A stretch of DNA of 32,000 bases, taken from the NCBI RefSeq assembly GCF_002310835.1, contig NZ_CP011041.1:480001-512000 (forward strand), read 5' to 3'. Within the stretch, counting starts at the first letter, position 1. The number at the start of each line of letters is the position of its first letter. Positions 769 to 28,880 of this stretch are shown piece by piece. The notes below the pieces were generated by a model. It ran no database searches and was not told the DNA's origin. It was given only the letters and a program-made list of their open reading frames with translations. Made by a program: the position numbers and the translations under genes. Source of the stretch: Pseudoalteromonas tetraodonis (lineage in GTDB: Bacteria; Pseudomonadota; Gammaproteobacteria; Enterobacterales; Alteromonadaceae).

Positions 769-796
769 TAGGTCGATTCAGTTTAAATAAGTATGG

Positions 797-2248: not shown

Positions 2249-2305
2249 CTCTTGAATTTGGGTATTATCTAGAAAATTTCCAAATTTTAAGTAAAGGAAT
2301 TAAAA

Positions 2306-3430: not shown

Positions 3431-3441
3431 GTTTAAACTAG

Positions 3442-4368
3442 ATGAAAATTTTATTAACCGGTGCTAATGGCATGGTTGGCAGAAATATTTTAGAAGTAGC
3501 TAAACAGTACGACTATGATTTTTTGTCACCAAGTAGCAGTGAACTAAATTTACTTGATTCTAACTCAGTCAACCAGTATGTAAGCATACACAAGCCCGAC
3601 ATGGTAATACACGCTGCAGGTATTGTTGGTGGTATTCAAGCTAATATGGCACAGCCTGTAAAGTTTTTGGTTGAAAACATGCAAATGGGGCTTAATATTC
3701 TCACTGCAGCTAATAATTCAAATGTTAATACCTTTCTAAACTTGAGTAGCTCTTGTATGTATCCTCGTGATGCTGCAAACCCTTTAAGTGAAGATTTGAT
3801 TTTAAAAGGTGAGTTGGAGCCAACGAATGAAGGTTATGCGCTTGCAAAAGTGACTAGTACACGGCTTTGTGAGTATATTATAAAAGAAAATCCAAACCGC
3901 CAATATAAAACAATTATTCCATGTAATTTATATGGGTGTTTTGATAAGTTCGATCCGAATCATTCACATATGATTCCTGCGGTTATTCGAAAAATAGATG
4001 AAGGGAAGAAAAATAATCTTCCTGAAATAGATATTTGGGGAGATGGCGAAGCTCGTCGTGAATTTATGTATGCAGAAGATCTAGCCGATTTTATTTTTTA
4101 TGCAATAAGAAACTTTGAAAAAATGCCTCAAAACTTGAACGTTGGTTTAGGTACTGATTATTCAATTAATGATTATTACCAAACTATAGCAAAGGTAGTT
4201 GGTTTTAAAGGAAAATTTAAGCATGACTTAGATAAGCCTGTTGGTATGAAGCAAAAATTAATAGACGATAAAAAGTTAAAAGAATTTGGCTGGCACTATA
4301 AAACTAAATTAGAAGCCGGTATTAAGAAAACGTATGAATTTTATTTAAGAGAGTATTGTAATGACTAA
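3442..4368 (+). CDS. fcl: GDP-L-fucose synthase family epimerase/reductase (Fcl/ColC); in this context probably GDP-L-colitose synthase
   Basis: 308 aa, collinear with E. coli Fcl as I recall it (ELNLLDS, GGIQAN, SSCMYP, EPTNEGYALAK, NLYG, NSHMIPAVIRK, WGDGEARREFMYAEDLA, NVGLGTDYSI..IAKVVGFKG). It lies between gmd and colD and overlaps colD by 8 bp. Confidence 0.85.
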   Translation: MKILLTGANGMVGRNILEVAKQYDYDFLSPSSSELNLLDSNSVNQYVSIHKPDMVIHAAGIVGGIQANMAQPVKFLVENMQMGLNILTAANNSNVNTFLNLSSSCMYPRDAANPLSEDLILKGELEPTNEGYALAKVTSTRLCEYIIKENPNRQYKTIIPCNLYGCFDKFDPNHSHMIPAVIRKIDEGKKNNLPEIDIWGDGEARREFMYAEDLADFIFYAIRNFEKMPQNLNVGLGTDYSINDYYQTIAKVVGFKGKFKHDLDKPVGMKQKLIDDKKLKEFGWHYKTKLEAGIKKTYEFYLREYCND

Positions 4369-5533
4369 TTACGCACTAGCAAGCAGCACATGGGATGAGA
4401 ACGAGTATTCTGCAATTCAAAGAGTAATAGATTCTGACATGTTTACCATGGGTAAAGAAGTTGCTCAATACGAAAAAGATTTCGCTGAGTTTTTTGGTTC
4501 GAAATATGCGCTAATGGTCAGTTCAGGTTCGACAGCTAATTTATTAATGATCGCCGCATTATTTTTTACCAAAAATGAGTCTTTAAAGTTAAAACGTGGT
4601 GATGAAGTAATTGTACCTGCCGTCTCTTGGTCGACTACTTACTTCCCATTGCAACAATATGGCTTAAAAGTTAAGTTTGTAGATATAGATCGCAATACTT
4701 TAAATATGGATCTAGACAAATTAGAAGCTGCTATTACAGATAAAACACGAGCTATTTTGTCGGTAAATTTATTAGGCAACCCTAATGACTTTAATCGCAT
4801 GAACGAAATTATTGCAGATCGTAACATTTTTGTTTTAGAAGATAACTGTGAGTCAATGGGCGCAACCTTAAACGGTAAGCAAGCAGGTACATTTGGTGTT
4901 ATGGGGACGTTTAGCTCATTCTTTTCTCATCATATCGCCACAATGGAAGGTGGTTGCGTAGTTACGGATGATGAAGAACTTTATCATATCCTTCTTTGTA
5001 TTCGAGCCCATGGTTGGACGCGTAACTTACCTAAATTTAATAAAGTCAGTGGCGAGAAAAGTGATGACCCATTCGAAGAGTCATTTAAGTTTATGTTACC
5101 AGGCTACAATGTACGTCCACTTGAGATGAGTGGTGCACTAGGAATAGAGCAGCTTAAAAAATTACCTCGTTTTATTGAAATGCGTCGTGAAAATGCAAAG
5201 TTATTCCAATCATTATTTGCTAATCATCCTTATATTGATATTCAGCAAGAAACGGGCTTAAGTAGTTGGTTTGGTTTTTCATTAATTTTAAAGGAAAATG
5301 CACCATATACCCGTGCCGATTTAGTTAAATTACTAACTGAAAATGGTATTGAATGCAGACCAATTGTAACTGGTAATTTCTTAAAAAATAAAGAAGTACT
5401 TGAGTACTTTGACTATGAAGTCGCTGGTTCATTAGAAGCTGCCGAATATTTAGATGAAAATGGTTTATTTGTGGGTAATCATCAAAATAGTATTACTAAA
5501 GAAATTAAATTGTTAGCAGATAGCCTTAGCTAA
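4361..5533 (+). CDS. colD: GDP-4-keto-6-deoxy-D-mannose 3-dehydratase (ColD), DegT/DnrJ/EryC1 aminotransferase fold
   Basis: 390 aa, near-collinear with E. coli ColD as I recall it (NYALASSTWDENEY, MVSSGSTANLLMIAALFFTK, VPAVSWSTTYFPLQQYGLKVKFVDID, LEDNCESMGAT). The usual PLP-lysine position carries His (SFFSHHIATMEGG), which is the ColD hallmark. Confidence 0.85.
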   Translation: MTNYALASSTWDENEYSAIQRVIDSDMFTMGKEVAQYEKDFAEFFGSKYALMVSSGSTANLLMIAALFFTKNESLKLKRGDEVIVPAVSWSTTYFPLQQYGLKVKFVDIDRNTLNMDLDKLEAAITDKTRAILSVNLLGNPNDFNRMNEIIADRNIFVLEDNCESMGATLNGKQAGTFGVMGTFSSFFSHHIATMEGGCVVTDDEELYHILLCIRAHGWTRNLPKFNKVSGEKSDDPFEESFKFMLPGYNVRPLEMSGALGIEQLKKLPRFIEMRRENAKLFQSLFANHPYIDIQQETGLSSWFGFSLILKENAPYTRADLVKLLTENGIECRPIVTGNFLKNKEVLEYFDYEVAGSLEAAEYLDENGLFVGNHQNSITKEIKLLADSLS

Positions 5534-5582
5534 AAACCAATTGTAACTATATTAGAACCTTTATTTTATATGGATTGTTAGT

Positions 5583-6182
5583 GTGTTATTAATATTAAAA
5601 AGTATTGCGAGTAAGCTTTATCGTCAAATTAGGTTGATCTTCTCCCAGCGAGATAACCGAATATTTAGTTATAATGTAAGCTTAAAGTCTCTTAACGGTA
5701 GTAGTATTGAAGTTAAAGAGGATACTTTTATAGATTCAAACTCAACTATTGGTTCGTATAGTTACATTGGACGGCATTGCTCTATTAGTAAATCATCAAT
5801 TGGAAGATATTGCTCAATTGCAAATAATGTTTCAATAGGGCAAGGTGAGCACGACTTAAAGGAAATAAGTACAAGTAGTATCTTCTATCATTCGCCATAC
5901 GATTTACTCACAAGTAAAAGTTGCAAAATAGAGGATGATGTTTGGATAGGAGTTGATGTTATCATCTTACGCGGTGTTACAATTGGCACTGGTGCTGTTG
6001 TAGGGGCAAACTCTGTTGTTACTAAAGATGTGCCACCATTTGCGGTGGTTGTAGGATCGCCAGCAAAACTAATTAAATATAGATTTGATGAAGATAAAAT
6101 AACTGCAATTTTAAAAAGTAAATGGTGGAATGAGAAACCTGAAATGGCGAAAATAATATTTACTGAGTTAAATAAAAAATGA
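5583..6182 (+). CDS. Hexapeptide-repeat (left-handed beta-helix) acetyltransferase, probable sugar O-acetyltransferase
   Basis: 199 aa with a GTG start. Hexapeptide repeats are visible ([14 protein letters not shown]; [45 protein letters not shown]). It overlaps the next gene by 4 bp (ATGA). Confidence 0.8.
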
Positions 6183-7198
6183 AAGCATCCTTAGTAATAG
6201 ATTACCATTTAAATAATAAAATATTCGATGTGAGTGATAGATCTGTAAACAGAGATGATTATGCTTATAGCATTTGGTTATTAAAACAGAAGTGCAAGAG
6301 CGTGAATATTGAGCTTTCAACATGCGATATTAATAAATTATCAGATTCAGATATGGCCTTTTATTTTGACTTACCCAAGCATGAGGAAAAAGTTGAAACG
6401 GAAATAGCCTATCTTTTTTTATTTGAAAGCGAAGTAATTAAATTAAATAATTGGGAAAAACTAAATCATAATCAATACAGTAAAGTTTTCACCTGGAATG
6501 ATGAGCTAGTTGATAATAAAAAATATTTTAAGATCAATTTCACTCATAAGTTTCCTGAGAGTCGAGAGGCTCATAGAAGTAATCAAAAAAAAATTGCATC
6601 TAAAAAGTTGTGCACATTAATTGCGGGTAATAAAAAAGTTAATCACCCACTAGAATTATACTCAGAAAGAGAGAAAACAATTCGTTGGTTTGAACAAAAC
6701 ACCAATAATGAGTTTGACTTTTATGGAATAGGGTGGCAAAAACATACGTCAAGTAATCGATTATTGCGCGCACTTCTATCTAAAATGAGTTTCTTAAACA
6801 CACTTTTTCCTCCTAGCTATCCCTCTTATAAAGGGCCAGTGGATAGTAAAAAGGCGACATTAAACAATTATAAGTTTGCAATTTGCTATGAAAATGCTCA
6901 ACTAATTCCAGGCTACATAACGGAAAAAATATTTGATTGTTTTTTCGCCGGATGCATTCCAATTTATTGGGGAGCGCCCAACGTTACTGACCATATCCCT
7001 GCTAATTGTTTTATAGATAGACGAAAATTTAACTCTCATGAGGAACTCTACCATTACATCAGTAACATGTCCGAAGTGGAATACAGCGTTATTCTATCAA
7101 ACATAGAGGATTATCTGTTTTCAGAACAATCGACCCCCTACAGAGCTGAAACATTTGCAAAGACGATAGTTAAACATGTCTTAGCTGATTTGAAGTAA
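6179..7198 (+). CDS. Glycosyltransferase family 10 (alpha-1,3/4-fucosyltransferase-like)
   Basis: 339 aa. The C-terminal motif [35 protein letters not shown] matches the GT10 signature (H. pylori FutA-type ..FENS....Y.TEK......IPIYWG). Confidence 0.8.
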
Positions 7199-7231
7199 AC
7201 AGCATTTTATATACAATTTATTAGGTTAATA

Positions 7232-8098
7232 ATGATAAAAGTTAAAGCAATTGGAGGCTTAGGCAACCAACTTTTTCAATATGCGGCAGCCAGATCTATT
7301 GCTGAAAAGCGTAAAGATAAAGTCTTGGTCGATGTGTCTGCTTTTCAGTCTTATGAAACACATCCATTTTGTTTAAATAAGTTTAATTGTAAAGCTACTT
7401 TCGATAATCGGTTAAATCTTAAAAAAAAGTTACTAAGCAATAGTAGAATTAATAAAATACTTTTTAGTTTTGGTTTTTTAAAAAATCACTATATTGAGAA
7501 AAGTTTAAAATTTGATGACTCTTTATCGCAAAATACAAATATTACTCAAATTACTGGTTTTTTTCAGTCAGAAAAATACTTTTTAAGTATCCGTGATTGT
7601 TTGTTAGACGAGTTAACTTTGGTTAACGAGCTCAATGAGTATGAGCTGTCTGTTAGTAATGCAATTAGAAATGCTAAAAATAGTGTATCAATCCATATAA
7701 GGCGAGGTGACTATGTTTCTGATGAGGGGGCTAACAAAACGCATGGCGTCTGTGATAGTGAGTATTTTAAAAAGGCGCTAAGGTATCTTTCGACAAAAGA
7801 AATATTAGATAAAAACACGGAACTTTTTATTTTTTCTGATGATATAAAGTGGTGTCGTAACAATCTAAGTTTTGACTACAAAATGAATTTTGTCGATGGC
7901 TCGAGTGAACGACCTGAAGTAGACATGATATTGATGTCAGAGTGTGAGCATCAAATCATTTCAAATAGTACTTTTAGTTGGTGGGGAGCTTGGCTTAATC
8001 AAAATGAAGATAAAGTTATTATTGCGCCCAAGGTTTGGTTTCAATCAGCCGAGCTGGATTCTACAGATATAATTCCTGATAATTGGGTTAAGTTGTAA
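7232..8098 (+). CDS. Glycosyltransferase family 11 (alpha-1,2-fucosyltransferase-like; possible colitosyltransferase)
   Basis: 288 aa. The three GT11 motifs are present: GGLGNQLFQYAAARSIA, HIRRGDY and SNSTFSWWGAWL. Confidence 0.88.
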   Translation: MIKVKAIGGLGNQLFQYAAARSIAEKRKDKVLVDVSAFQSYETHPFCLNKFNCKATFDNRLNLKKKLLSNSRINKILFSFGFLKNHYIEKSLKFDDSLSQNTNITQITGFFQSEKYFLSIRDCLLDELTLVNELNEYELSVSNAIRNAKNSVSIHIRRGDYVSDEGANKTHGVCDSEYFKKALRYLSTKEILDKNTELFIFSDDIKWCRNNLSFDYKMNFVDGSSERPEVDMILMSECEHQIISNSTFSWWGAWLNQNEDKVIIAPKVWFQSAELDSTDIIPDNWVKL

Positions 8099-8102
8099 TT
8101 AG

Positions 8103-9560
8103 ATGTTGAATATTTTAAGTAAAGTTAATAAAGATATTACAGCATTAGCTATAGGAAAGATGCTACAGGTAACCCTGGCTCTCCTTTCTGTCCGGTTATT
8201 GACAACGTTTTTATCAGAGACACAAATAGGAAGTTATTACCTTTTACTTACTCTATTAACTTTATTTAACTTCGCATTCTTGAACCCAGTTGGCCAGTAC
8301 TATAATAGATATGTTCTTTACTGGAAAAATAATAGTAATTTATCAAATGCTAATGTAATGCTATTTCTTGCCCGCACATTGGGAATTGTTTTATCGTTGT
8401 TTGTAGCTGCATTTATTTTTTATATTTTTGACTATTCTGAATTATTTACAATAGGAAGCTTTCTTTTCTTTATTTTTTTTTCCTTGGCTGCAGGTAGCTA
8501 TTTAGTCTTTTTGAATGTTATTAATCTATTAGGAAATCGCCTTTGTTTTATCAAATATTTATTAGCTTCCCTAATTCTAGGCATTGTTATCGCTATAGTG
8601 ACTAATTTATTCATTAGCAAGACAGGTATGGCTTGGCTGTATGGAGTAGCTATCGCTCAAATTATCTTATTTGTGCCTATGTATAAAGTGATTGGCAACT
8701 ACGATAAAGTAGACGTTAGCTATTTATTCCAAAAAATAAACTTAGCAACGTGTAAAAAGGTACTCATATTCTCTCTACCTGTGACTCTCACTCTTTTTTT
8801 ACAATGGGGTCAAAATAGTTCGTATCGGATCATTGTTGAAGACAAGTATACTGTTGAGGTGCTCTCCTATATTGCAGTCGGTTTAGCTGTATCAACGTCT
8901 ATTTTCACAGCGGTTGAAGGTTTGGCTACGCAGTATTTTATGCCAGATTACTTAAAAAATATTAATAATAGTACTAAAGATACTCGGGCTTTGGCTTGGA
9001 ATTATTTAGCGAGCTATATGATACCTATATATTTTTTATTGATGATTTTTGTAATATGTACTTCCCCTTTTTTAATGACGCTGTTAGTTAATGAAAAATA
9101 TCACAACGCTTATCCTTACGTAATGATAGGTGCTTCTATTGAGTTTTTTAGAGTAACCTCTAATTTGATTTATTTGGTTTCACAGTCAGAAATGAGAACT
9201 AAAACTACTATTTTTCCCTATCTATTAGGTTTTTTATTAATGATGGTTGGCTTATATAGCCTGAGTGAAAGTAGTCCTTTATGGTTTGTCCCTATTATTT
9301 TATCTTTTACATATTTTCTAATTTCTACGCTACTTTTCTTTAATATGAGAAAGCTATTAATAATTAAGATTCCTTTTAAAAGTTTAGGCATAGCTATTAT
9401 TTTGTCATTACCATTTATTACTTTGCTATTTATTAATAGTAATATTGGGCTTGTTGCTAGTTTTATTGCTGTTGGTGCTTTTGGTTGTTTTTTCTTGTTT
9501 TCTAGCTTTCTTATAATAAAAAGAGCTAAAAATAATAACGTATATCTTGATAGAAACTGA
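8103..9560 (+). CDS. wzx: Polysaccharide/O-antigen flippase (Wzx-like, MOP superfamily)
   Basis: 485 aa, very hydrophobic with many predicted membrane segments and no catalytic motif. It sits inside the glycan cluster next to the polymerase candidate. The assignment rests on topology and context only. Confidence 0.6.
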   Translation: MLNILSKVNKDITALAIGKMLQVTLALLSVRLLTTFLSETQIGSYYLLLTLLTLFNFAFLNPVGQYYNRYVLYWKNNSNLSNANVMLFLARTLGIVLSLFVAAFIFYIFDYSELFTIGSFLFFIFFSLAAGSYLVFLNVINLLGNRLCFIKYLLASLILGIVIAIVTNLFISKTGMAWLYGVAIAQIILFVPMYKVIGNYDKVDVSYLFQKINLATCKKVLIFSLPVTLTLFLQWGQNSSYRIIVEDKYTVEVLSYIAVGLAVSTSIFTAVEGLATQYFMPDYLKNINNSTKDTRALAWNYLASYMIPIYFLLMIFVICTSPFLMTLLVNEKYHNAYPYVMIGASIEFFRVTSNLIYLVSQSEMRTKTTIFPYLLGFLLMMVGLYSLSESSPLWFVPIILSFTYFLISTLLFFNMRKLLIIKIPFKSLGIAIILSLPFITLLFINSNIGLVASFIAVGAFGCFFLFSSFLIIKRAKNNNVYLDRN

Positions 9561-9637
9561 TCTTATATAACTACTTATTCAATTATTGGATTTATAAAAA
9601 CTGTGAAAATAAGTGACAAAATGATTAGGCGCTTTTA

Positions 9638-10690
9638 ATGTTATTCTATATTACTATGTTTTTAACTATAGTTATTCTTGGGCTATCAAAATTTAAGTAT
9701 AAAAATTTATCAATGATTTTTATTCTATTTTTAGTATCTGCGCTGCGTTTTGACGTTGGTTTCGACTTTCTTTCATACTACACCTCGATTGTTGAATTTA
9801 AACCTGGCGATATGACGTATATAAGATTTGGCTTACTGCATGGGGCTTTAATAGAGTTTTCTAATAGAATAAATTTTACGCAGCTTTATTTTATAATCAC
9901 CTCTGCGGTCATGTACTTTTTTATTCATTTAGCATTAAAAAACCATAGTAAAAACTATTTTTATTCAGTACTCATTTTTATCTCAATACCTTTTTTTTTC
10001 CTTATGTCGGTTAATTTTATAAAACAATTTACGGCGATGGCGGTAGTTTTATATAGCACCAAATATATTTTAAACCGTAATTTCATTAAATTTTCTTTCG
10101 CTATTATATTTGCTGCTATGCTCCATAGTACTGCGTTGGCTTGTATTTTCTTGTACTTTCTCTATCCTAGAAGAATATCTAGCTGGGTACTAATTTCTTT
10201 ATTCGTAGGTTCTTTCTTCTCTTTTTCTTTAGCACAAAAAGCCGTCGATGCTGTTCTACCATTTTATTCTCATTATTTGCTCGTCAAAGTGGATGGGGGT
10301 AAAGTATTCCAGGTTTTGTTGGTTATCCTTTTTTCTTTATTTATTATTATTAGGCGATTACTTCCGAGCGCAGAAGCTAACTTTTATTTTTATGTTTTTA
10401 CTTTGGGCGCTTGTATTTATAATACGTTTCAGCCTATAGGTTTTTCAGCAACAAGGGTAAGCTATTATTTATTAGTTTATCTGATCTTTTTGGTTCCTTT
10501 ACTAAGTGTCAGGATACGCAAAAATCAATTTTTACTTGTCATTTTGACTATAACTTTTCCCCTTTTTGTAATTTCACTTTATATGAATTCAAAGGTAGGA
10601 ACACGAAGTCCAAGTATACCTTATCAAGTGTTTTTTAATAAAGATATTCATGATATCCGTCCTTATGGATGGGTCAAAAAAGATGAATAA
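9638..10690 (+). CDS. wzy: O-antigen polymerase candidate (Wzy / EpsG family membrane protein)
   Basis: 350 aa polytopic membrane protein. The N-terminal LRFDVGFDFLSY resembles the EpsG-family R..G.D...Y motif. It is very AT-rich and sits in the cluster. Confidence 0.55.
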   Translation: MLFYITMFLTIVILGLSKFKYKNLSMIFILFLVSALRFDVGFDFLSYYTSIVEFKPGDMTYIRFGLLHGALIEFSNRINFTQLYFIITSAVMYFFIHLALKNHSKNYFYSVLIFISIPFFFLMSVNFIKQFTAMAVVLYSTKYILNRNFIKFSFAIIFAAMLHSTALACIFLYFLYPRRISSWVLISLFVGSFFSFSLAQKAVDAVLPFYSHYLLVKVDGGKVFQVLLVILFSLFIIIRRLLPSAEANFYFYVFTLGACIYNTFQPIGFSATRVSYYLLVYLIFLVPLLSVRIRKNQFLLVILTITFPLFVISLYMNSKVGTRSPSIPYQVFFNKDIHDIRPYGWVKKDE

Positions 10691-10701
10691 CAGAGGATTT
10701 A

Positions 10702-11535
10702 ATGTCTATTTCAATAATATTACCTGTATATAATGCTGAAAAATTCTTAGATAAAGCAATTAAAAGTATTTTGATACAAACACATAAACAATTTGAACTT
10801 ATATGCATTGATGACGGTTCAACAGATCAGAGTTTAAATATTCTAAAAAAATATGCGACGTTAGATGATAGAGTTATAGTTATAAGTCGTGAAAATAAGG
10901 GGCTTATTTATACTCTTAATCAAGCTATTGATATGTCAAAATACAACTATATTGCAAGAATGGATGCTGATGATGTTTGTTTATCGACACGTTTAGAAGC
11001 GCAGCTCAAACTGATGCGAAAAGAAAGGCTAGCAATAGTTGGTTCTTCTTATACTTACATTGATATTGCTGGAAACATTATTGGGTCGCGATCTTTACCT
11101 TCAAGTAATAGCGTTATTTCATGGTTGATGGATCTTGGTTCTCCGTTGTGCCACCCCTCTGTTATGTTTGATAAAACGCTTTTAGGCAAAGAATTGTACT
11201 ATAATGCAGATTTCAAGCATTGTGAAGATTATGAACTATGGTTTAGGTGTCGCTCCATAGGAGTAAAATTTGGGAATTTAAAAGAAAAACTTTTTAATTA
11301 TAGAGTATTGGATACAAGTGTATCGCGACAAAATCGTCAAGAGCAAAAACAGACCTCGATTAATCTTGTAACACGTTATTGTTCTTATGCACATAATAAA
11401 ACTGAAGCTGAATATCTTTTATTTGACCGAAATACAAAAAGAAATACAAAGTTAAACTTAAAATTCTTTTTTAGAATTTTTAAGAAACTTAGTTTTGCAA
11501 AAGCTATTTTTGTTTTCTTGTATCTTACAAAATAA
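10702..11535 (+). CDS. Glycosyltransferase family 2
   Basis: 277 aa. The N-terminus ISIILPVYNAEKFLDKAIKSILIQTHKQFELICIDDGSTDQS plus ARMDADD is a classic GT2 (GT-A, DxD) signature. Confidence 0.9.
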   Translation: MSISIILPVYNAEKFLDKAIKSILIQTHKQFELICIDDGSTDQSLNILKKYATLDDRVIVISRENKGLIYTLNQAIDMSKYNYIARMDADDVCLSTRLEAQLKLMRKERLAIVGSSYTYIDIAGNIIGSRSLPSSNSVISWLMDLGSPLCHPSVMFDKTLLGKELYYNADFKHCEDYELWFRCRSIGVKFGNLKEKLFNYRVLDTSVSRQNRQEQKQTSINLVTRYCSYAHNKTEAEYLLFDRNTKRNTKLNLKFFFRIFKKLSFAKAIFVFLYLTK

Positions 11536-11548
11536 AAAGGAATTTACA

Positions 11549-12292
11549 TTGCTTAGTGTTCTTATCTCATGCTTGTTTAATCGTCTTGAAAACATAGAAA
11601 AAGTTATTAAATCCAAGGTTGTGTATGTTGAATATGTAGTTATAGTGCAAGGCACTAATCAAGATACTTTATCTACTTTTAAAGAATGTAATTTGTGGAC
11701 AAACCGCGATGATTTGAAAATCATTTGCGATCCTAACATTGGAGTAACTTACAGCCGTAATCTAGCAATTGAACATGCTAATGGTGATTTAGCTTTATTT
11801 ACAGATGACGATGTAACCTTGTGCGATGACTTTATCGAATTGGTGAATGAAAGTTTTCTTTATAATAAGAATTGTGACTTTTTAACTTTTAATGTTGAAG
11901 ATGAAAACGGGGATTTTTTAAAGCCTCCTTTATCTAAAAAAGAGCATAATCTTAGAACGATTCTTGGAGTTGGTACCATCCAAATAGCTGTACGATTAAA
12001 TGCTTTAACGCGAACTTATAAATTTCCTTTAAATCTAGGGGCTGGCGCAAAATATCCCTGTTGTGATGAACCCGTATATTTATCTATATTTTTAAACCAA
12101 GGGCACAAAGGAATGCATATACATAAAACCATCTGTCAACACCCTAAAGAGTCATCTGGGAGCTCACTTGATAGTTACGTTAAGGTAATATCTAGATTAA
12201 TTGCTTTTAAATATATCTTTGGAAAAGGGCTAGGTTACATTTTTTTTATAGTTTTCATTATGAAAAATATAAATAAAGTGTTTACTAAATAA
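11549..12292 (+). CDS. Glycosyltransferase family 2-like (GT-A fold)
   Basis: LSVLISCLFNR..., GVTYSRNLAIEHANGDLALFTDDDV (DxD region). I prefer TTG 11549, preceded by AAGGA 7 nt upstream and starting just after the previous stop. The ORF-track ATG 11495 would overlap the upstream gene by 41 bp. Confidence 0.65.
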   Translation: MLSVLISCLFNRLENIEKVIKSKVVYVEYVVIVQGTNQDTLSTFKECNLWTNRDDLKIICDPNIGVTYSRNLAIEHANGDLALFTDDDVTLCDDFIELVNESFLYNKNCDFLTFNVEDENGDFLKPPLSKKEHNLRTILGVGTIQIAVRLNALTRTYKFPLNLGAGAKYPCCDEPVYLSIFLNQGHKGMHIHKTICQHPKESSGSSLDSYVKVISRLIAFKYIFGKGLGYIFFIVFIMKNINKVFTK

Positions 12293-12385
12293 CTTACCTA
12301 ATCGATGACTCATTTTAGTTATTCAGTTAAGAGTTACTAATTAATTGTATACTAACCAGAATATTAACTACCTAAAGGACTACCC

Positions 12386-13270: not shown

Positions 13271-13340
13271 CGGGCGATGGGCATCGGGTAACGAGCTACG
13301 AGCGACGGGGTATGGGCATCGAGCCTAGAACCTCGAATTA
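13271..13340. repeat. Degenerate heptad tract (CGRGCNN-type units decaying to AGAACCT-type)
   Basis: cgggcga tgggcat cgggtaa cgagcta cgagcga cggggta tgggcat cgagcct agaacct cgaatta. It starts immediately after the galU stop. Confidence 0.85.
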
Positions 13341-13353
13341 ACCAGTTGGGCTA

Positions 13354-13455
13354 ATGGTTTTATTTTCTCATTTACTCCTCATTCACTTCTCTTTGTGAAT
13401 AAGATCTTAAAATATTTATGCACAAAGAGTTTAAGAGACGCAGCGCTTTTAGAGG
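13354..13455. repeat. Rearranged copy of the X module
   Basis: atggttttattttctcatttactcctcattcacttctctttgtg ... cacaaagagtttaagagacgcagcgcttttagagg. These are the same two arms as in the 27.8-kb units but in swapped order. Confidence 0.85.
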
Positions 13456-13553: not shown

Positions 13554-13587
13554 AAAAAAACCTTGCGATATTAGCCGCAAGGTTTTT
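13554..13587. terminator. Bidirectional rho-independent terminator between convergent galU and the MFS gene
   Basis: aaaaaaa-ccttgcg-atattagc-cgcaagg-ttttt: 7-bp GC-containing stem extended by A/T pairs, with an A-run on one side and a T-run on the other. Confidence 0.8.
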
Positions 13588-13597
13588 AAATATCTGG

Positions 13598-13658
13598 AAC
13601 CTTTAACCTTTAACCTTTAACCTTTAACCTTTAACCTTTAACCTTTAACCTTTAACCT
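13598..13658. repeat. Heptamer array (AACCTTT)n, 8.7 copies
   Basis: Read directly. It lies between the bidirectional terminator hairpin and the stop codon of the MFS gene. Confidence 0.97.
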
Positions 13659-15390: not shown

Positions 15391-15431
15391 ACTGGTAGCT
15401 TTATGTCGCGTCAAAGGTAAAAAATTATTCA

Positions 15432-15545
15432 CCACAGAGGTCACAGAGGTCACAGAGGAAGTGATTAAAAGTAAAAACAGTTAGCTGTCAGCGTTCAAAA
15501 AGGTATTACTCTGTGTAGCGCGAAGCGCCTCGGTGCTCTCTGTGG
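15432..15545. repeat. Isolated copy of the Y hairpin module, left arm = (CACAGAGGT)x3
   Basis: ccacagaggtcacagaggtcacagagga ... ctctgtgtagcgcgaagcgcctcggtgctctctgtgg. The right arm is near-identical to the Y modules at 27.9-28.6 kb. Confidence 0.9.
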
Positions 15546-15605
15546 TTCAAAAATAAATATTTTAGGTTAAAGGCGAATGGTTAAAGTAAAAGAGCAGGTT
15601 TTAGA

Positions 15606-15640
15606 AATCAGATAGCAGACAGCAGATAGTAGAAATCAGA
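15606..15640. repeat. Short heptamer array: aatcaga tagcaga cagcaga tagtaga aatcaga
   Basis: Read directly. It abuts the stop codon of paralogue A, and the 7-bp phase continues leftward to about 15564 (aggttaa aggcgaa tggttaa ...). Confidence 0.85.
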
Positions 15641-15642
15641 CA

Positions 15643-15987
15643 TCAAGCAGAGTCGAACCTATTTTTTAAGCTAGTTAGCATAGCTGCTAACTCTTTTGTT
15701 TCTAAAACCCATACTTGGCTTATACCTTTTGGTAAATAGCCAATTTCATCCCCAATATAGATTTGGGTGCGCGCTTCACCTAGTGAGGCGCGTGCAATAT
15801 CAATAAAGCGGCTTTTTTCTTTAAAGCTTTCTCTGCAAACCCCCTCAGCTATATTGCTGGGAACCGATAGCGCAGACCGAGTTAACTGATCTCTAAACCC
15901 ATAATCTTTTAAATTAGCGGTAGATTTATAAATTTCACAACTTAGTTTTACAGATCTTTTCCATACATCTAAATGCTCAAAGTTCAT
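15643..15987 (-). CDS. Four-helix-bundle protein, 23S rRNA intervening-sequence protein / Avd family (paralogue A)
   Basis: 114 aa. FEHLDVWKRS...DQLTRSALSVPSNIAEG...RFIDIARASLGEARTQIYIG matches the PF05635/TIGR02436 pattern. Strong RBS (AGGAG, 5-nt spacer). It lies 58 bp downstream of the beta-CASP gene on the same strand. Confidence 0.85.
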   Translation of the reverse strand: MNFEHLDVWKRSVKLSCEIYKSTANLKDYGFRDQLTRSALSVPSNIAEGVCRESFKEKSRFIDIARASLGEARTQIYIGDEIGYLPKGISQVWVLETKELAAMLTSLKNRFDSA

Positions 15988-16010
15988 TACGATCTCCTAG
16001 GTTAAAATAA

Positions 16011-16031
16011 GACTTCTGATATCTGACTTCT
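16011..16031. repeat. Short heptamer array: gacttct gatatct gacttct
   Basis: Read directly in the 58-bp gap between the beta-CASP gene stop and the paralogue A start. Confidence 0.8.
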
Positions 16032-17428: not shown

Positions 17429-17450
17429 TTTATGTCCTTATGTTTGGCTG

Positions 17451-17513
17451 CGGGCCACGAGCCACGGGTTACGGCTCGAAGCTCGAGCCTAGCACTTAGA
17501 GCCTAACGCCTTT
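17451..17513. repeat. Degenerate heptad tract
   Basis: cgggcca cgagcca cgggtta cggctcg aagctcg agcctag cacttag agcctaa cgccttt. Confidence 0.85.
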
Positions 17514-17657: not shown

Positions 17658-17691
17658 AAAAAAACCTTGCGATATTAACCGCAAGGTTTTT
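17658..17691 (-). terminator. Rho-independent terminator of ppaC (same conserved hairpin)
   Basis: aaaaaaa-ccttgcg-atattaac-cgcaagg-ttttt. Read on the minus strand, the stem is followed by a T7 run. Confidence 0.8.
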
Positions 17692-17698
17692 AAATTTC

Positions 17699-17740
17699 TC
17701 GAACCTCGAACCTCGAACCTCGAACCTCGAACCTCGAACC
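17699..17740. repeat. Heptamer array (TCGAACC)6
   Basis: Read directly. Its last base is also the first base of the reverse-complemented ppaC stop codon (cta at 17740-17742). Confidence 0.97.
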
Positions 17741-18663
17741 TAGCTCTTAAAAGCGTCTTGTAGTGGTGGTACTACTTGCTTTTTACGGCTCAATACGCCA
17801 TCTAGCCATACTTTACCGTCTTCTGGCTTTTCACCATAGGCTTGCTCAACAAGGCTGGCATCGTCTGATGCAATCAGCATTTGTGAGCCTTCTTTCATAA
17901 TGTCGGTTAGTAGTAAAAATACTGAATGACGACCGCCTTCTTCTTTAAGCTTGGCAATGTCAGCTTCAAGGTCAGCTTTAATCTCGTCAAATACTGCAAG
18001 GTCAATAACTTCTAACTGACCAATGCCAACAAGGTTACCGTTCATGTTAAAGTCTTTAAAGTCACGCATTACTAAATCACGTACAGGCGTATCTTCAACG
18101 GCTGATTTAACGCGGAACATGTCCATGCCTAGTTCTTTAAAGTCTTCAATGCCTGCAATTTCAGCAAGGGCTTCAACACATTTAATGTCGGCAGTGGTAC
18201 AGGTTGGTGATTTAAAAATAACCGTGTCGCTTAATATGGCGCAAAGCATAATGCCAGCAATATCTTTAGGGATCTCTACGTTATAAAAATCGTACATCAT
18301 CTTAATAATGGTGTTAGAACAACCAACAGGGCGGATCCAGCACTCAAGTGGTGTTGATGAGGTTAGGTCACCTAACTTATGGTGATCTACCACGCCAACA
18401 ACGCGAGCTTGGTCGATATCATCAGGTGCTTGGGTTTTTTCTGTGTGGTCTACAATGTAAACGTCTTCGCCAGCGTAGCTAAGTTTAAGCTCAGGTGCTT
18501 CGAAGCCAAATTTATCTAAAATAAACTGTGTTTCTGGTGATACTTCACCAAGGCGGGTTGGAATTGCCGGCTCATCAATTTGGTTTTTTAAATAAGCCAG
18601 TGCAATTGCACCACATATTGAATCTGAATCTGGGATTTTATGGCCCACTACATACATTGACAT
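17740..18663 (-). CDS. ppaC: Manganese-dependent inorganic pyrophosphatase (family II, DHH family)
   Basis: MYVVGHKIPDSDSICGAIALAY, VDHHKLGD (DHH motif), DHHA2-like C-terminus. I use ATG 18663 (AAGGAG 7 nt upstream). The ORF-track start at 18699 adds 12 unsupported residues. Confidence 0.88.
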   Translation of the reverse strand: MSMYVVGHKIPDSDSICGAIALAYLKNQIDEPAIPTRLGEVSPETQFILDKFGFEAPELKLSYAGEDVYIVDHTEKTQAPDDIDQARVVGVVDHHKLGDLTSSTPLECWIRPVGCSNTIIKMMYDFYNVEIPKDIAGIMLCAILSDTVIFKSPTCTTADIKCVEALAEIAGIEDFKELGMDMFRVKSAVEDTPVRDLVMRDFKDFNMNGNLVGIGQLEVIDLAVFDEIKADLEADIAKLKEEGGRHSVFLLLTDIMKEGSQMLIASDDASLVEQAYGEKPEDGKVWLDGVLSRKKQVVPPLQDAFKS

Positions 18664-20109: not shown

Positions 20110-20144
20110 AGCTGTCAGCTGTAAGTTTTCAGCTGTCAGTAAGA
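20110..20144. repeat. Short heptamer array: agctgtc agctgta agttttc agctgtc agtaaga
   Basis: Read directly between the mutM stop and the paralogue B stop. It contains the imperfect hairpin ctgtcagctg / cagctgtcag (20112-20139). Confidence 0.85.
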
Positions 20145-20148
20145 ATGG

Positions 20149-20496
20149 TTACTCACTTGTTTTTATTTTTGCTATCAAACTTGTTAGCATTTTTGACAGC
20201 TGGACTGTTTCATTTAGCCAAGACTTACCTATGTCGGTATCAATATAGTTAATATCGATGCCAATATATATTTGGGTTCTTGCCTCAGCAAGCGAAGAGC
20301 GAGCGATATCTAAAAAGCGTGTTTTTTCTTTATCACTCTCTCTTGTCATGCCCTCAGCTATATTACTAGGAACAGATAAACCAGAGCGTGTTAATTGATC
20401 TCTAAAGCTAAAGTCTTTAATTAGTTGTGTATTTCTGTAAATATCAGCGCTAAGGCGAGCTGAGCGCTTCCATACATCTAAGTTTTCAAAGTTCAT
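20149..20496 (-). CDS. Four-helix-bundle protein, 23S rRNA intervening-sequence protein / Avd family (paralogue B)
   Basis: 115 aa, aligning along its full length with paralogue A (MNFENLDVWKRS..DQLTRSGLSVPSNIAEG..RFLDIARSSLAEARTQIYIG). RBS AAGGA upstream. Confidence 0.85.
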   Translation of the reverse strand: MNFENLDVWKRSARLSADIYRNTQLIKDFSFRDQLTRSGLSVPSNIAEGMTRESDKEKTRFLDIARSSLAEARTQIYIGIDINYIDTDIGKSWLNETVQLSKMLTSLIAKIKTSE

Positions 20497-20609: not shown

Positions 20610-21138
<529 letters not shown>

Positions 21139-21798: not shown

Positions 21799-22188
21799 AT
21801 GGCAAATCAATACTACGGTACAGGTCGTCGTAAAAGTTCAAGTGCTCGCGTATTCTTACGCCCAGGCACTGGTAACATCGTAATCAACAAGCGCTCTTTA
21901 GAAGAGTACTTTGGTCGCGAAACAGCACGCATGGTTGTTCGTCAAGCTCTTGAGCTTGTTGACATGACTGAAAAGTTTGACTTACACATCACCGTTGCTG
22001 GTGGTGGTACTACTGGTCAAGCTGGTGCTATCCGTCACGGTATCACTCGTGCACTTATGGAGTTTGACGAGTCATTACGTCCACAACTTCGTAAAGCAGG
22101 TTTCGTTACTCGTGATGCACGTAAAGTTGAACGTAAGAAAGTGGGTCTTAAGAAAGCGCGTAAGCGTCCACAGTTCTCAAAACGTTAA
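21799..22188 (+). CDS. rpsI: 30S ribosomal protein S9
   Basis: 129 aa; [16 protein letters not shown]...[18 protein letters not shown] is canonical S9. Confidence 0.97.
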
Positions 22189-22209
22189 TTTTTACGTTAT
22201 CAAGAATTC

Positions 22210-22236
22210 AAAAACCCAGCTTATGCTGGGTTTTTT
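22210..22236 (+). terminator. Rho-independent terminator of rplM-rpsI
   Basis: aaaaacccagc-ttat-gctgggtttttt, 22 bp after the rpsI stop. Confidence 0.85.
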
Positions 22237-22257
22237 GTTTTGTAGCTATAAGATTTT

Positions 22258-22901
22258 GGTTCAAGGTTCAAGGTTCAAGGTTCAAGGTTCAAGGTTCAAG
22301 GTTCAAGACTCAAGGTTCAAGGTTCAAGGTTCAAGGTTCAAGGTTCAAGGTTCAAGGTTCAAGGTTCAAGGTTCAAGGTTCAAGGTTCAAGGTTCAAGGT
22401 TCAAGGTTCAAGGTTCAAGGTTCAAGGTTCAAGGTTCAAAGCTCAAGGTTCAAAGCTCAAGGTTCAAGGTTCAAGGTTCAAGGTTCAAGGTTCAAGGTTC
22501 AAGGTTCAAGGTTCAAGGTTCAAGGTTCAAGGTTCAAGGTTCAAGGTTCAAGGTTCAAGGTTCAAGGTTCAAGGTTCAAGGTTCAAGGTTCAAGGTTCAA
22601 GGTTCAAGGTTCAAGGTTCAAGGTTCAAGGTTCAAGGTTCAAGGTTCAAGGTTCAAGGTTCAAGGTTCAAGGTTCAAGGTTCAAGGTTCAAGGTTCAAGG
22701 TTCAAGGTTCAAGGTTCAAGGTTCAAGGTTCAAGGTTCAAGGTTCAAGGTTCAAGGTTCAAGGTTCAAGGTTCAAGGTTCAAGGTTCAAGGTTCAAGGTT
22801 CAAAGCTCAAGGAGCAAGGTTCAAGGTTCAAGGAGCAAGGTTCAAGGTTCAAGGTTCAAGGTTCAAGGTTCAAGACTCAAGGTTCAAGACTCAAGGTTCA
22901 A
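22258..22901. repeat. Giant heptanucleotide tandem array (GGTTCAA)n, 92 copies
   Basis: Read directly: 644 bp in constant phase. Variant units are gactcaa (units 8, 89, 91), agctcaa (27, 29, 79) and ggagcaa (80, 83). Units 30-78 are perfect. Confidence 0.97.
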
Positions 22902-22981
22902 GCTATAAGTTTGATCTAAGCTTTGTGTCTTTCTTATTTTACAGTTATAAGTTAAGCATGTTTTAGCTGACTGGTTATGTT

Positions 22982-23329
22982 ATGAGGTTTGAAGATTTAA
23001 GGGTATGGCAACGTTCAGCCGATTTAGCTTGCGAGATTTATTTACATTTTAAGCAGAGTAAAGAGTTTGGTTTAAAAGATCAAATAACACGATCTGCGCT
23101 TTCAATTTCTTCAAATATAGCAGAGGGTTATGAACGGGTAACACCTAAAGATTATACTCGATTTTTATCATATTCTAAGGGGAGTTGTGGAGAATTACGC
23201 TCTCAAATTTACATTGCATTAAAAATAGGAGAGGTTGATACGACAAAGGCCACTGAATGGATTGAGGAAACTCGTGAACTTTCCCGTATGATTTCAGCAT
23301 TGATGAAATCAATCGATGCTTGGGAATAA
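22982..23329 (+). CDS. Four-helix-bundle protein, 23S rRNA intervening-sequence protein / Avd family (paralogue C)
   Basis: 115 aa. MRFEDLRVWQRS..DQITRSALSISSNIAEG..RFLSYSKGSCGELRSQIYIA has the same architecture as A and B but is more diverged. The Shine-Dalgarno is weak. Confidence 0.8.
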   Translation: MRFEDLRVWQRSADLACEIYLHFKQSKEFGLKDQITRSALSISSNIAEGYERVTPKDYTRFLSYSKGSCGELRSQIYIALKIGEVDTTKATEWIEETRELSRMISALMKSIDAWE

Positions 23330-23373
23330 GAGGTTCAAAATTTAATATTCATTCAAAAATATATGAGTATGTT

Positions 23374-23429
23374 TCGCCTTTCGCCTTTCACCTTTCACCT
23401 TTCATCTTTCATCTTTCATCTTTCATCTT
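23374..23429. repeat. Heptamer array with stepwise variants: (TCGCCTT)2 (TCACCTT)2 (TCATCTT)4
   Basis: Read directly, 45 bp downstream of the paralogue C stop. Confidence 0.95.
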
Positions 23430-23908
23430 CAATTTTCCCTTTAAGACTAATGTCGACATTAGCTTGATCAAAATAGGCCAAGTATGCGTATTTATTGAAC
23501 GAAAGCTTAAAAATGACCGACTAACGCAAAAAAAGTTAAATAATTATCGCAATTAGTTTAAATCCATCAGTTAATTGGTGAATTTTTTTGCTACAATTGG
23601 CGGGCAAATAAAGTGAATGAGTTTAATGTCGCCAAATTCAGTGGTTACTTTACTTAGTTGGTGAGATTGTACTTGTTTACAAATTGTTTTTACGGAAGCG
23701 ATACTATAGTCATTTGGTTTCATACTCGAGCTAACTTAATCAACTATTTGAGCAAGTCAGGATTATTCGAGCAGGAGGCTGTGAATAACCTTGTTTTAAA
23801 CAAGGGTTTTAATTATGATCGTTTCTCTTTTAAAATTCGAAAAATTAACCTGCTGTAACTGATGTTCTCAATATAGCAAGTGTTGAGAATCATAGTGGAG
23901 ATAAGTGG

Positions 23909-27767: not shown

Positions 27768-27790
27768 GTAGCAGCGGGTTTATTCCGCGC
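27768..27790 (+). repeat. REP-like hairpin element
   Basis: gtagcagcgggtttattccgcgc. Confidence 0.85.
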
Positions 27791-28066
27791 ATGTGGTTTT
27801 AGGTAATAAATTTATTCACAAAGAGGTTAAGAGACGCTGTGCTTTTAGAGCTAGTGAAAAAACAATTAATCACTCGGGCTCATGGTTATTGTTTTCTCAT
27901 TTACTGCTCATTCACTTCTCTTTGTGCAAAAAGATCTTGAAGAGATTCTATTTACCACAGAGGGTGCAGAGCACACAGAGAAAATGATTAAAAACATGTT
28001 TTATTTGCTTTGTCTTCTCTGTGTAGCGCGTAGCGCCTCGGTGTACTCTGTGGTAAGAAATGTTTT

Positions 28067-28089
28067 GTAGGCGGGGCTTTATGCCGCGC
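28067..28089 (+). repeat. REP-like hairpin element
   Basis: gtaggcggggctttatgccgcgc. Confidence 0.88.
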
Positions 28090-28354
28090 ATGTGGTTTTA
28101 GGTAATAAATTTATTCACAAAGAGGTTAAGAGACGCTGTGCTTTTAGAGCTAGTGAAAAAACAATTAATCACTCGGGCTCATGGTTATTGTTTTCTCATT
28201 TACTTCTCTTTGTGCAAAAAGATCTTGAAGAGATTCTATTTACCACAGAGGGTGCAGAGCACACAGAGAAAATGATTAAAAACATGTTTTATTTGCTTTG
28301 TCTTCTCTGTGTAGCGCGAAGCGCATCGGTGTTCTCTGTGGTAAGAAATGTTTT

Positions 28355-28377
28355 GTAGGCGGGGCTTTATTCCGCGC
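28355..28377 (+). repeat. REP-like hairpin element
   Basis: gtaggcggggctttattccgcgc. Confidence 0.88.
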
Positions 28378-28675
28378 ATGTGGTTTTAGGTAATAAATTT
28401 ATTCACAAAGAGGTTAAGAGACGCTGTGCTTTTAGAGCTAGTGAAAAAACAATTAATCACTCGGGCTCATGGTTATTGTTTTCTCATTTACTCCTCATTC
28501 ACTTCTCTTTGTGCAAAAAGATCTTAAAGAGATTTTATTCACCACAGAGGTGGCAGAGCACACAGAGGAAATGATTAAAGACATGTTTTATTTGTCCTGT
28601 CTTCTCTGTGTAGCGCGAAGCGTCTCTGTGTACTCTGTGGTAAAAATGTTTTACGCCGTGCAAGTTTGATTTAAG

Positions 28676-28748: not shown

Positions 28749-28782
28749 AAAAAAACCTTGCGATGTTAACCGCAAGGTTTTT
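28749..28782 (-). terminator. Rho-independent terminator of dolP (same conserved hairpin)
   Basis: aaaaaaa-ccttgcg-atgttaac-cgcaagg-ttttt. Confidence 0.8.
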
Positions 28783-28788
28783 AAATTT

Positions 28789-28880
28789 CTGAACCTCGAA
28801 CCTCGAACCTCGAACCTCGAACCTCGAACCTCGAACCTCGAACCTCGAACCTCGAACCTCGAACCTCGAACCTCGAACCT
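28789..28880. repeat. Heptamer array (TCGAACC)n, 12 perfect copies plus 1 variant
   Basis: Read directly. It ends 6 bp from the dolP stop codon. Confidence 0.97.

Follow-up and report, generated by a model that had tools for sequence, protein, structure and literature searches.

What is a 644-bp array of GGTTCAA heptamers, lying between rpsI and petA in Pseudoalteromonas tetraodonis: an isolated microsatellite, or part of a larger genetic element? The array stands directly upstream of a gene for a 115-aa four-helix-bundle protein of family PF05635 (23S_rRNA_IVP), one of three such genes (paralogues A, B and C) in the 32,000-nucleotide stretch that we analyzed (contig NZ_CP011041.1, positions 480,001 to 512,000 of the forward strand). 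We refer to this whole stretch as the window, number positions from its first letter, and cite loci from elsewhere by numbers with the prefix L. From comparisons of strains and of the gene family across phyla, we consider it likely that the array is the over-expanded 5' arm of a cassette built around gene C, similar to the intervening sequences (IVSs) of rRNA that carry an open reading frame (ORF), and not a microsatellite standing on its own.

An array inside a strain-swapped cassette

The array consists of 92 heptamers in a single phase, with no insertions or deletions. Eighty-four of these are GGTTCAA and eight are variants, namely GACTCAA (units 8, 89 and 91), AGCTCAA (units 27, 29 and 79) and GGAGCAA (units 80 and 83), and the longest perfect stretch covers units 30-78 (22461-22803, 343 bp). 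Tandem Repeats Finder (TRF) reports a period of 7, 92.1 copies and 95% matches over 22258-22902, with a score of 1178, far above chance. With GGTTCAA written as '.', GACTCAA as d, AGCTCAA as a and GGAGCAA as e, the unit map is '[7.]d[18.]a.a[49.]ae..e[5.]d.d.'. An earlier note on this DNA, made from the letters alone, had given the same 92 in-phase units, the same eight variants and the same perfect run, and our recount reproduces it exactly. The note had also placed the array 21 bp after the rplM-rpsI terminator and 80 bp before the start of gene C. The second distance stands, as there are 80 nt from the array end to the ATG at 22982; the first comes to 22 nt from the terminator stem, or 16 nt from the T-tract. 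All three plus frames of the array are free of stop codons, in keeping with what the note had said of the sense strand, and each minus frame holds 29-31. Between the rpsI stop and the petA start, a distance that it had put at 1.7 kb, there are 1720 bp.

Homology between strains delimits the unit to which the array belongs. At the rpsI-petA site, the window and either of two related loci (L003 or L008) carry different PF05635 paralogues. Divergence begins right past the T-tract of the terminator, between 22241 and 22242, and identity resumes at 23433, the exact outer edge of the right-hand heptamer array. The swapped unit is thus left array, leader, ORF and right array (22242-23432), which we call cassette C, and the terminator (22210-22241) is the last backbone sequence common to strains with another cassette or with none. 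The fpg-rplM site likewise has a variable module, bounded by a backbone edge on one side and by the outer end of an array on the other. Its arms enclose gene B in the window, nothing in L005 (an arms-only heptamer hairpin), a member of a 288-bp repeat family in L003 and a terminator hairpin in L009. PF05635 is the sole domain found in the ORF of cassette C, with no transposase of the kind that marks REP/RAYT elements, insertion sequences (ISs) and their derivatives. No recent transposition of paralogue C was seen, every copy found being at the rpsI-petA site. The parts of the three cassettes of the window are collected in Table 1.

Table 1. Parts of cassettes A, B and C and the terminator that precedes cassette C, in window coordinates
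Feature	Position	Strand	Content or evidence
Cassette A	15603..16031	-	gene 15643-15987 between heptamer flanks
Cassette A, 3' heptamers	15603-15637	-	GATTTCT..GCTATCT..GATTTCT
Cassette A, 5' heptamers	16011-16031	-	AGAAGTC AGATATC AGAAGTC
Cassette B, 3' arm	20110..20139	-	AGCTGTC-type units (GCTGACA-type in gene sense)
Cassette B, four-helix-bundle gene, paralogue B	20149..20496	-	115 aa; PF05635
Cassette B, 5' arm	20610..21138	-	perfect (CTGACCG)75.6; reads GGTCAGC on the minus strand
rplM-rpsI intrinsic terminator	hairpin 22210-22235, T-tract to 22241	+	last backbone before cassette
Cassette C, left junction	22242..22257	+	GTAGCTATAAGATTTT; contains first GCTATAAG copy
Cassette C, 5' (left) heptamer arm, expanded	22258..22901	+	TRF, unit count, unit map
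Cassette C, 80-nt leader, array to ATG	22902..22981	+	begins with second GCTATAAG copy
Cassette C, four-helix-bundle gene, paralogue C	22982..23329	+	115 aa; PF05635 23S_rRNA_IVP, TIGR02436, NF008912
Cassette C, 3' (right) heptamer arm	23372..23432	+	TTTCGCC x2, TTTCACC x2, TTTCATC x4, partial unit

Paralogue C is a clear member of its family (PF05635, E = 1.8e-33; TIGR02436, 112 bits). All three four-helix-bundle proteins of the window match TIGR02436 and NF008912 and have XCC0516 (2GSC), a structure with five chains, as their nearest solved relative (E = 3e-13 for paralogue C). The right arm of cassette C amounts to about nine units of TTTCRYC. In cassette B, the CTGACCG array has no variant units and separates paralogue B from the rplM promoter region. 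The CTGACCG and GGTTCAA arrays together flank the rplM-rpsI operon, the former 1.1 kb upstream of the latter. As a separate observation, an 8-bp direct repeat, GCTATAAG (then (A)TTT), at 22245-22252 and 22902-22909, flanks the GGTTCAA array alone, in every allele. The repeat may be a target-site duplication of the array, a candidate only. An array-less allele, GTAGCTATAAGTTTGATCTAAGC, was not found in metagenome contigs, where a scan with the leader sequence gave two contigs, one of them already in our set. We also set aside a CRISPR array, as the units are contiguous, with no spacers.

The array is highly polymorphic between strains. Among 20 related-strain loci, gathered by exact-protein look-up with RpsI and protein C, those with cassette C have near-identical flanks and an identical 115-aa protein, and differ in array length: 4 units in L005 and L016, 7 in L015, 8 in L002, 26 in L011 and L020, and 48-51 in L001, L012, L013 and L017, compared with 92 in the window. 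The locus is thus a variable number tandem repeat (VNTR), a long simple-sequence repeat of short head-to-tail units with copy-number polymorphism at one site. Variant units serve as landmarks, with '7 units + d', 'a.a' and a 3' (d.)n block common to several alleles, as in L013, '[7.]d[6.](de.)4.a.a[8.](d.)6', and L011, '[12.](d.)7'. The 3' 'd.d.' of the window is a remnant of a 14-bp higher-order block, which has from two to seven copies among the alleles, and a (de.)4 block with a 21-bp period occurs in sister alleles. Length changes at several internal sites, in 7-, 14- and 21-bp registers, and most of all in pure tracts; the extra length of the window is located in two pure GGTTCAA tracts. 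Internal changes in these registers, together with the excess in pure tracts, are the signature of slippage or unequal exchange.

These alleles also bear on how the earlier note had pictured the array. The note had seen a mirrored order in the variants and supposed growth from the center with decaying ends. Shared landmarks and changes at several internal sites do not support this picture, and on the unit maps we rejected the mirror symmetry altogether. Its view of the array as dynamic is borne out: the alignment of sister strains that it had proposed reveals large polymorphism in length and variants between conserved flanks, and not a fixed array. What the note did not see is that the array forms part of cassette C, with a partly complementary partner array past the gene, that the cassettes of paralogues A and B are built alike, and that the CTGACCG array is an object of the same sort.

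The length itself could be an artefact of assembly, with a true count far from 92. A draft contig, L101 (GCA_007991235.1), matches the window without a single mismatch over two aligned blocks (~17 kb and 3.2 kb, ~20 kb in all) and differs in three arrays: 25 against 92 GGTTCAA units, 12 against 75 CTGACCG units and nine against eight AACCTTT units. Several other drafts (L009, L014, L015, L018 and L019) are broken or N-gapped inside these arrays. However, both pure runs in L101 are ~80 bp long (11 and 12 units), resembling k-mer-limited collapse, so that the draft is more likely to be wrong; its short arrays look like long perfect repeats collapsed in a short-read assembly, and the one-unit AACCTTT difference looks real. 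Moreover, the 7-bp phase of the window array is unbroken along all 644 bp, and the array has landmarks in common with independent alleles of ~50 units, one of them from a complete chromosome (CP152390.1). We therefore think it unlikely that the true count is far from 92, while the exact figure depends on the assembly, with L101 as a caveat. The CTGACCG array is also variable, with 7.6-13.6 units in most sister strains and at least 59.6 in L014. This last locus (Pseudoalteromonas sp. A2, contig JPMC01000017) has an identical protein C at the same site and carries an IS3-family element (rve and HTH_Tnp_1 ORFs, 1678-2925) within its GGTTCAA array, which is split into ~20 and seven units; the downstream four-helix-bundle ORF is intact.

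Another reading is that the array encodes a repetitive protein, as part of a 329-codon ORF (21977-22966). Its three plus frames are indeed open, and gene callers place ORFs of 48-149 aa there. However, the start of the 329-codon ORF lies within rpsI, out of frame with that gene, Pfam matches none of the called ORFs, and allele differences are not multiples of three units, so that no frame is conserved. Stop-freeness is, besides, a property of the unit itself. On the allele maps and the stop-free unit, we rejected this reading, which we regard as extremely improbable. Hypothetical proteins of 48-329 aa are called on heptamer arrays in the window (21977-22966), L001 (6425-6802), L013 (5536-5985) and L014 (2-595), and such ORFs are artefacts of stop-free units.

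Inverted period-7 arms around the gene family

Is a heptamer array beside a PF05635 gene peculiar to Pseudoalteromonas? We analyzed 80 loci, the best of at least 595 matches when GTDB genomes, one for each species, were scanned with a protein pattern; nothing but protein similarity decided their choice. The species of the window is not among them, and the groups represented are Verrucomicrobiota, Planctomycetota, Bacteroidota, Clostridia, Acidobacteriota, Chloroflexota, and beta- and gammaproteobacteria. Arrays of at least four units numbered 4, 4, 80, 16, 0 and 0 for periods of 5, 6, 7, 8, 9 and 10, respectively. Autocorrelation at period 7 reached 0.13-0.27 only close to the ORF, up to ~150 nt on its upstream and ~100 nt on its downstream side, over a background of 0.07; periods 5, 6 and 9 were flat around the ORF and period 8 was slightly raised. 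By permissive TRF, the density of period-7 arrays was 3.8/kb at no more than 200 nt from the gene and 0.47/kb elsewhere, an 8-fold enrichment, and copy numbers had a median of 4.6, a mode of 4-5 and a maximum of 38.

The arrays on the two sides of the gene are mutually inverted. When the 200 nt upstream were aligned with the reverse complement of the 200 nt downstream, the median score was 30, compared with 17 for direct alignment and 16 for permuted partners. Complementary flanks, defined as those scoring above the permuted 95th percentile, occur in 59 of the 75 testable loci, where 5% are expected (Wilcoxon p = 1.6e-9). This complementary stretch, the arm, measures 35 nt in the median; upstream of the gene, 30 nt separate it from the start codon, and on the other side it starts 13 nt past the stop. 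On the sense strand, left arms are G-rich and right arms C-rich. Units differ between loci at two to three positions and keep a core and an orientation bias.

We added eight annotated plasmid loci, mostly cyanobacterial (Nostoc, Anabaena, Calothrix, Picosynechococcus and Pseudanabaena) and otherwise from Riemerella, in which the arms often abut the start and stop codons. Over the 88 loci, an array lies within 200 nt of the gene in 74 and on both sides in 45; the units of these two-sided loci are closest as reverse complements in 34 and as direct repeats in five. PF05635-family genes are normally bracketed by two short, mutually reverse-complementary arrays of about five heptamers each; with 92 and 75.6 units, two arms of the window lie far outside the usual size. 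Three individual cases may be described. The locus on Riemerella anatipestifer plasmid NZ_CP081938.1 (L108, 100318-100734) has GGTTTAA GGTTCAA GGTTTAA upstream and AACCTTG/AACCTTA downstream, including the same GGTTCAA heptamer as the window, around a protein ~34% identical to paralogue B (the tblastn query). On cyanobacterial plasmids L105, L109 and L110, the four-helix-bundle genes lie between cas6 and cas4 or cmr2 and cmr3, with arms that abut the start and stop codons; 23S_rRNA_IVP genes within cas loci have already been noticed in the literature. In Pseudanabaena, the arrays (AAAAGCT x15 and AAAAGCC x10) are direct, not inverted.

The family-wide pattern bears on the simplest alternative, that the array is a generic microsatellite, such as the STRR repeats of cyanobacteria, in permissive intergenic DNA and unrelated to the neighboring gene. 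The window and sister loci do have many heptamer arrays away from four-helix-bundle genes, an IS insertion within the array is tolerated, and heptamers are reported to be the commonest and most over-represented of the long simple repeats of bacteria, slippage of the polymerase being the proposed cause (Mrazek, 2007, cited in PMC4679880 and PMC4692102). However, period-7 arrays are enriched next to PF05635 genes across phyla with their two sides mutually inverted, the edges of the swapped modules coincide with the outer ends of arrays, and the corresponding 12 kb of a second clade with identical RpsI (L004, L006, L007 and L010) is free of both four-helix-bundle genes and heptamer arrays. We find an unrelated microsatellite unlikely.

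Possible pairing and binding of the arms, and related systems

If the array is an arm, how did it reach its length, and what might the arms do? Presumably, a short arm of about five heptamers, as is normal for the family, was expanded by slippage in this lineage. Slippage during replication, or unequal exchange between sister strands, within pure GGTTCAA tracts would have brought the 5' arm of cassette C to 92 units, and a like process that of cassette B to 75. The arms are unusually unstable in this Pseudoalteromonas lineage, and, most likely, no function depends on the extra length, whose turnover would far outpace that of point mutations. As to the role of the arms, we infer that they would pair into a stem that loops out the ORF, most likely in the transcript, which would then be a substrate for RNase III, like the ORF-bearing IVSs of rRNA.

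The three cassettes of the window can be compared in gene sense. Cassette A has AGAAGTC AGATATC AGAAGTC upstream and GATTTCT..GCTATCT downstream, and cassette B has GGTCAGC x75 upstream and GCTGACA-type units downstream, both with 6/7 complementary positions. Cassette C has GGTTCAA upstream and TTTCGCC, TTTCACC or TTTCATC downstream, with 5/7 (GGTGAAA being the reverse complement of the right arm). Local alignment of the upstream flank with the reverse-complemented downstream flank scores 24 for A, 26 for B and 22 for C, where the 95th percentile of permuted controls is 21.3. The GGTTCAA array has no predicted structure of its own, with a minimum free energy (MFE) of 0 on either strand. In the MFE RNA fold of the 4-unit allele, GGUUCAA units pair with UUUCACC units, each by 5 bp with a 2x2 loop. 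For cassette B, the arms are paired in both the MFE and the centroid structures (z = -1.9).

Several observations weigh against an arm that pairs in this way, or against extending the pattern too freely. The complementarity of cassette C is only 5/7 per unit and its alignment score of 22 is barely over the control percentile; its pairing is not in the centroid structure (z = -0.07), and the variant units d, a and e pair worse with the right arm. The z-scores for cassettes C and B come from predicted folds of whole cassettes and are not decisive. In 55 of loci L021-L100, arm mismatches of the A.C/C.A kind, corresponding to G.U pairs on the antisense strand, number 118, compared with 65 of the sense-G.U type, repeated units not being independent; counted per locus, the bias is toward the antisense type in 27 and the sense type in 12. 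This excess fits poorly with a simple sense-RNA stem. We considered selection for G.U tolerance in the sense RNA and do not claim it, as the bias ran the opposite way; a hairpin might instead act on the opposite strand or at the level of DNA. A weak promoter within the 80-nt leader would exclude the array from the mRNA. The 80 loci are top-scoring matches and not a random sample of the family. Finally, heptamer arrays with no adjoining four-helix-bundle gene are frequent in Pseudoalteromonas (at 13598, 17698 and 28791, and in arms-only hairpins), and not every heptamer array in this genome is a cassette arm.

A different account of the arms agrees that the array is an arm and departs on how arms work. 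The arms may be candidate binding sites for a homopentameric four-helix-bundle protein, each protomer taking one heptamer and each arm having about five, and the long array an over-grown operator or packaging site. The median arm of 35 nt and the modal copy number of 4-5 would suit such a protein, as would the family member 2GSC, which has five chains and is a homopentamer according to Lin 2006, as cited in PMC4990558. Units also keep their core and orientation bias despite two to three variable positions between loci, and unrelated GxxExxY cassettes carry other repeats (9-mers with a CACAGAG core), so that flanking repeats seem specific to the protein family. However, unit sequence differs widely between loci with similar proteins, and five units also simply give a stem of about three turns, which is long enough for RNase III. 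We regard this possibility as speculative and rather unlikely. The arms may act either as an RNA or DNA stem, as in rRNA IVSs, or as a binding site for a pentameric protein.

A third proposal is that the array is an expression rheostat, or contingency locus, whose copy number tunes paralogue C or the read-through from rpsI toward petA. The array is hypervariable in otherwise identical sequence, directly upstream of the gene and just past a terminator. In Haemophilus influenzae, 7-bp ATCTTTC repeats upstream of hmw1A and hmw2A tune expression, and here too an upstream heptamer array changes its copy number by slippage between close strains. Unlike the hmw repeats, the GGTTCAA array has an inverted partner across the gene, and any control of expression by its copy number would be hypothetical. 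The array is not in a real ORF, and no sigma-70-like promoter spans or adjoins it: a scan of the plus strand from the terminator to the ATG of gene C gave no convincing site. By eye, the best candidate in the leader is a weak TTGTGT-17-TATAAG, which we do not count as evidence. A range of 4-92 units, with an IS inside the array in one strain, suggests little constraint. A rheostat would also leave unexplained why the family elsewhere has arms of about five units abutting start and stop codons, with a downstream partner. We judge it quite unlikely.

Returning to the cassette-arm interpretation, the closest parallel is the 23S rRNA IVS with an S23p ORF (Leptospira, Coxiella burnetii, Xanthomonas and Brucella), in which an ORF of the same PF05635/TIGR02436 family as paralogue C lies between complementary ends. 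In Coxiella, the S23p ORF of the IVS is preceded by two to three tandem GACAGAT heptamers, whose number varies by strain, and RNase III removes the IVS, cutting on its 5' side at the first heptamer repeat (PMC4990558). This is the only experimental precedent that we found for heptamers beside an S23p ORF. Beyond the Coxiella remark, we found no literature link of PF05635/TIGR02436 genes in general to inverted heptamer arrays, in a search that did not extend to subscription journals, where an earlier description is possible. Unlike the rRNA IVSs, cassette C sits between protein-coding operons, outside helix 25 or 45 of 23S rRNA; the whole window has no rRNA and no Rfam match at gathering thresholds. 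Its arms differ as well, with 92 and nine units of limited complementarity, and excision here is conjectural.

Likeness to known heptamer families is also partial. Like STRR and GGGAATC (Xanthomonas), GGGGAYT (Nostoc) and TAACTGA (Beggiatoaceae), the array is made of tandem 7-bp units that are mostly intergenic, occur at many loci per genome and vary in copy number, and the window alone holds at least eight period-7 arrays with different units. The cyanobacterial four-helix-bundle genes that we examined are flanked by STRR-like heptamers. Unlike those families, it has a gammaproteobacterial host, other unit sequences and 92 copies, far above the usual range; GGTTCAA is not known to be among the consensus units of STRR1-3, which are repeats of heterocystous cyanobacteria. 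The Xanthomonas GGGAATC arrays include about 70 'convergent inverted pairs' (PMC4692102), and TAACTGA repeats are abundant in Beggiatoaceae (PMC4679880); these two papers report no tie to four-helix-bundle genes. The cassettes also resemble two other known systems. In REP/REPIN-RAYT elements and integron attC cassettes, a small gene lies between inverted copies of a dispersed intergenic repeat, and the cassettes at a fixed site differ by strain, as in Pseudoalteromonas. Unlike these, ours have no HUH transposase or integrase domain, their arms are tandem heptamers and not a single palindrome, and the copies of paralogue C are at one site.

Other features of the window and implications

By Pfam matches, the genes of the window run in the order MFS transporter, PF05635 gene A, beta-CASP RNase, DHH phosphoesterase, a 166-aa protein, fpg, PF05635 gene B, rplM-rpsI, PF05635 gene C, petABC and sspAB, followed by genes with BON (PF04972), SIS (PF13580), UPF0102 (PF02021) and LppC-family (PF04348) matches. 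A module that combines a conserved bidirectional terminator hairpin (AAAAAACCTTGCG...CGCAAGGTTTTT) with a heptamer array within ~10 nt occurs three times (13555-13658, 17659-17741 and 28750-28880), with AACCTTT x8.7, CTCGAAC x6.3 and CTCGAAC x12.9. These arrays lie between the hairpin and the stop codon of the minus-strand MFS, DHH and BON genes, respectively, which places them in the 3' untranslated region; the mRNA units are AAAGGUU or GGUUCGA. Arms-only hairpins, made of GC-rich degenerate heptamers (NNNNACG or CGGGNNN) followed by inverted CTCGNNN with no gene between, occur at 17446-17489 and in the fpg-rplM spacer of L005.

Three tandem copies of a 288-bp element, 92-95% identical, occupy 27779-28652, with partial copies at 13336-13454 and 15426-15546 and another copy in the fpg-rplM spacer of L003. 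The element has inverted 9-mer arms (CACAGAG.../...CTCTGTG), as around GxxExxY genes, with no such ORF inside, although gene callers place ORFs of 60-90 aa there; it may be a derivative resembling a miniature inverted-repeat transposable element. A GxxExxY/PDDEXK_3 gene (TIGR04256) stands between the beta-CASP and DHH genes in L002 (1459-1830), L008 and L012 and is absent from the window. GxxExxY genes of Bacteroides finegoldii, Bernardetia and Pseudoalteromonas have inverted period-9 repeats with a CACAGAG core; plasmid loci L113 and L114 were also examined, and further plasmid copies have direct repeats or none. The first part of the window (1-12300) is low in GC (27-38%, compared with ~42% elsewhere), carries sugar-modifying and glycosyltransferase genes (EpsG, Glyco_transf_10/11 and DegT) and looks like an O-antigen or capsule cluster. 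It has no heptamer arrays, and L101 is the sole locus that shares it.

In practical terms, such arrays break or collapse short-read assemblies (25 and 92 units in the same strain), draw spurious ORF calls, and may be used as very fast strain-typing markers in Pseudoalteromonas. Taken alone, the array is a moderately interesting VNTR; of greater interest is the architecture found across phyla. In cyanobacteria, tandem heptamer repeats have been on record since 1990, and the S23p gene of rRNA IVSs has had, to our knowledge, no known function since 1993. On bacterial heptamer repeats there is, according to one paper, 'no detailed literature' (PMC4692102). If heptamer arms are regular in S23p cassettes, two old puzzles would be connected, that of bacterial heptamer repeats and that of S23p function. 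More speculatively, S23p/Avd-like proteins (we take the PF05635/S23p family of paralogue C to be related to Avd) and tandem-heptamer arrays could form one widespread system, in which a pentamer recognizes, on either side of its own gene, arms of some five heptamers each, with related arms-only hairpins and arrays dispersed elsewhere. We give this idea a small chance of being right. If it is, then the STRR, Xanthomonas GGGAATC and Pseudoalteromonas arrays would act as the cis-elements of a family of cassettes, selfish or regulatory, with REP-RAYT or the intervening sequences of rRNA as its analogues, and giant arrays such as (GGTTCAA)92 would be by-products of slippage.

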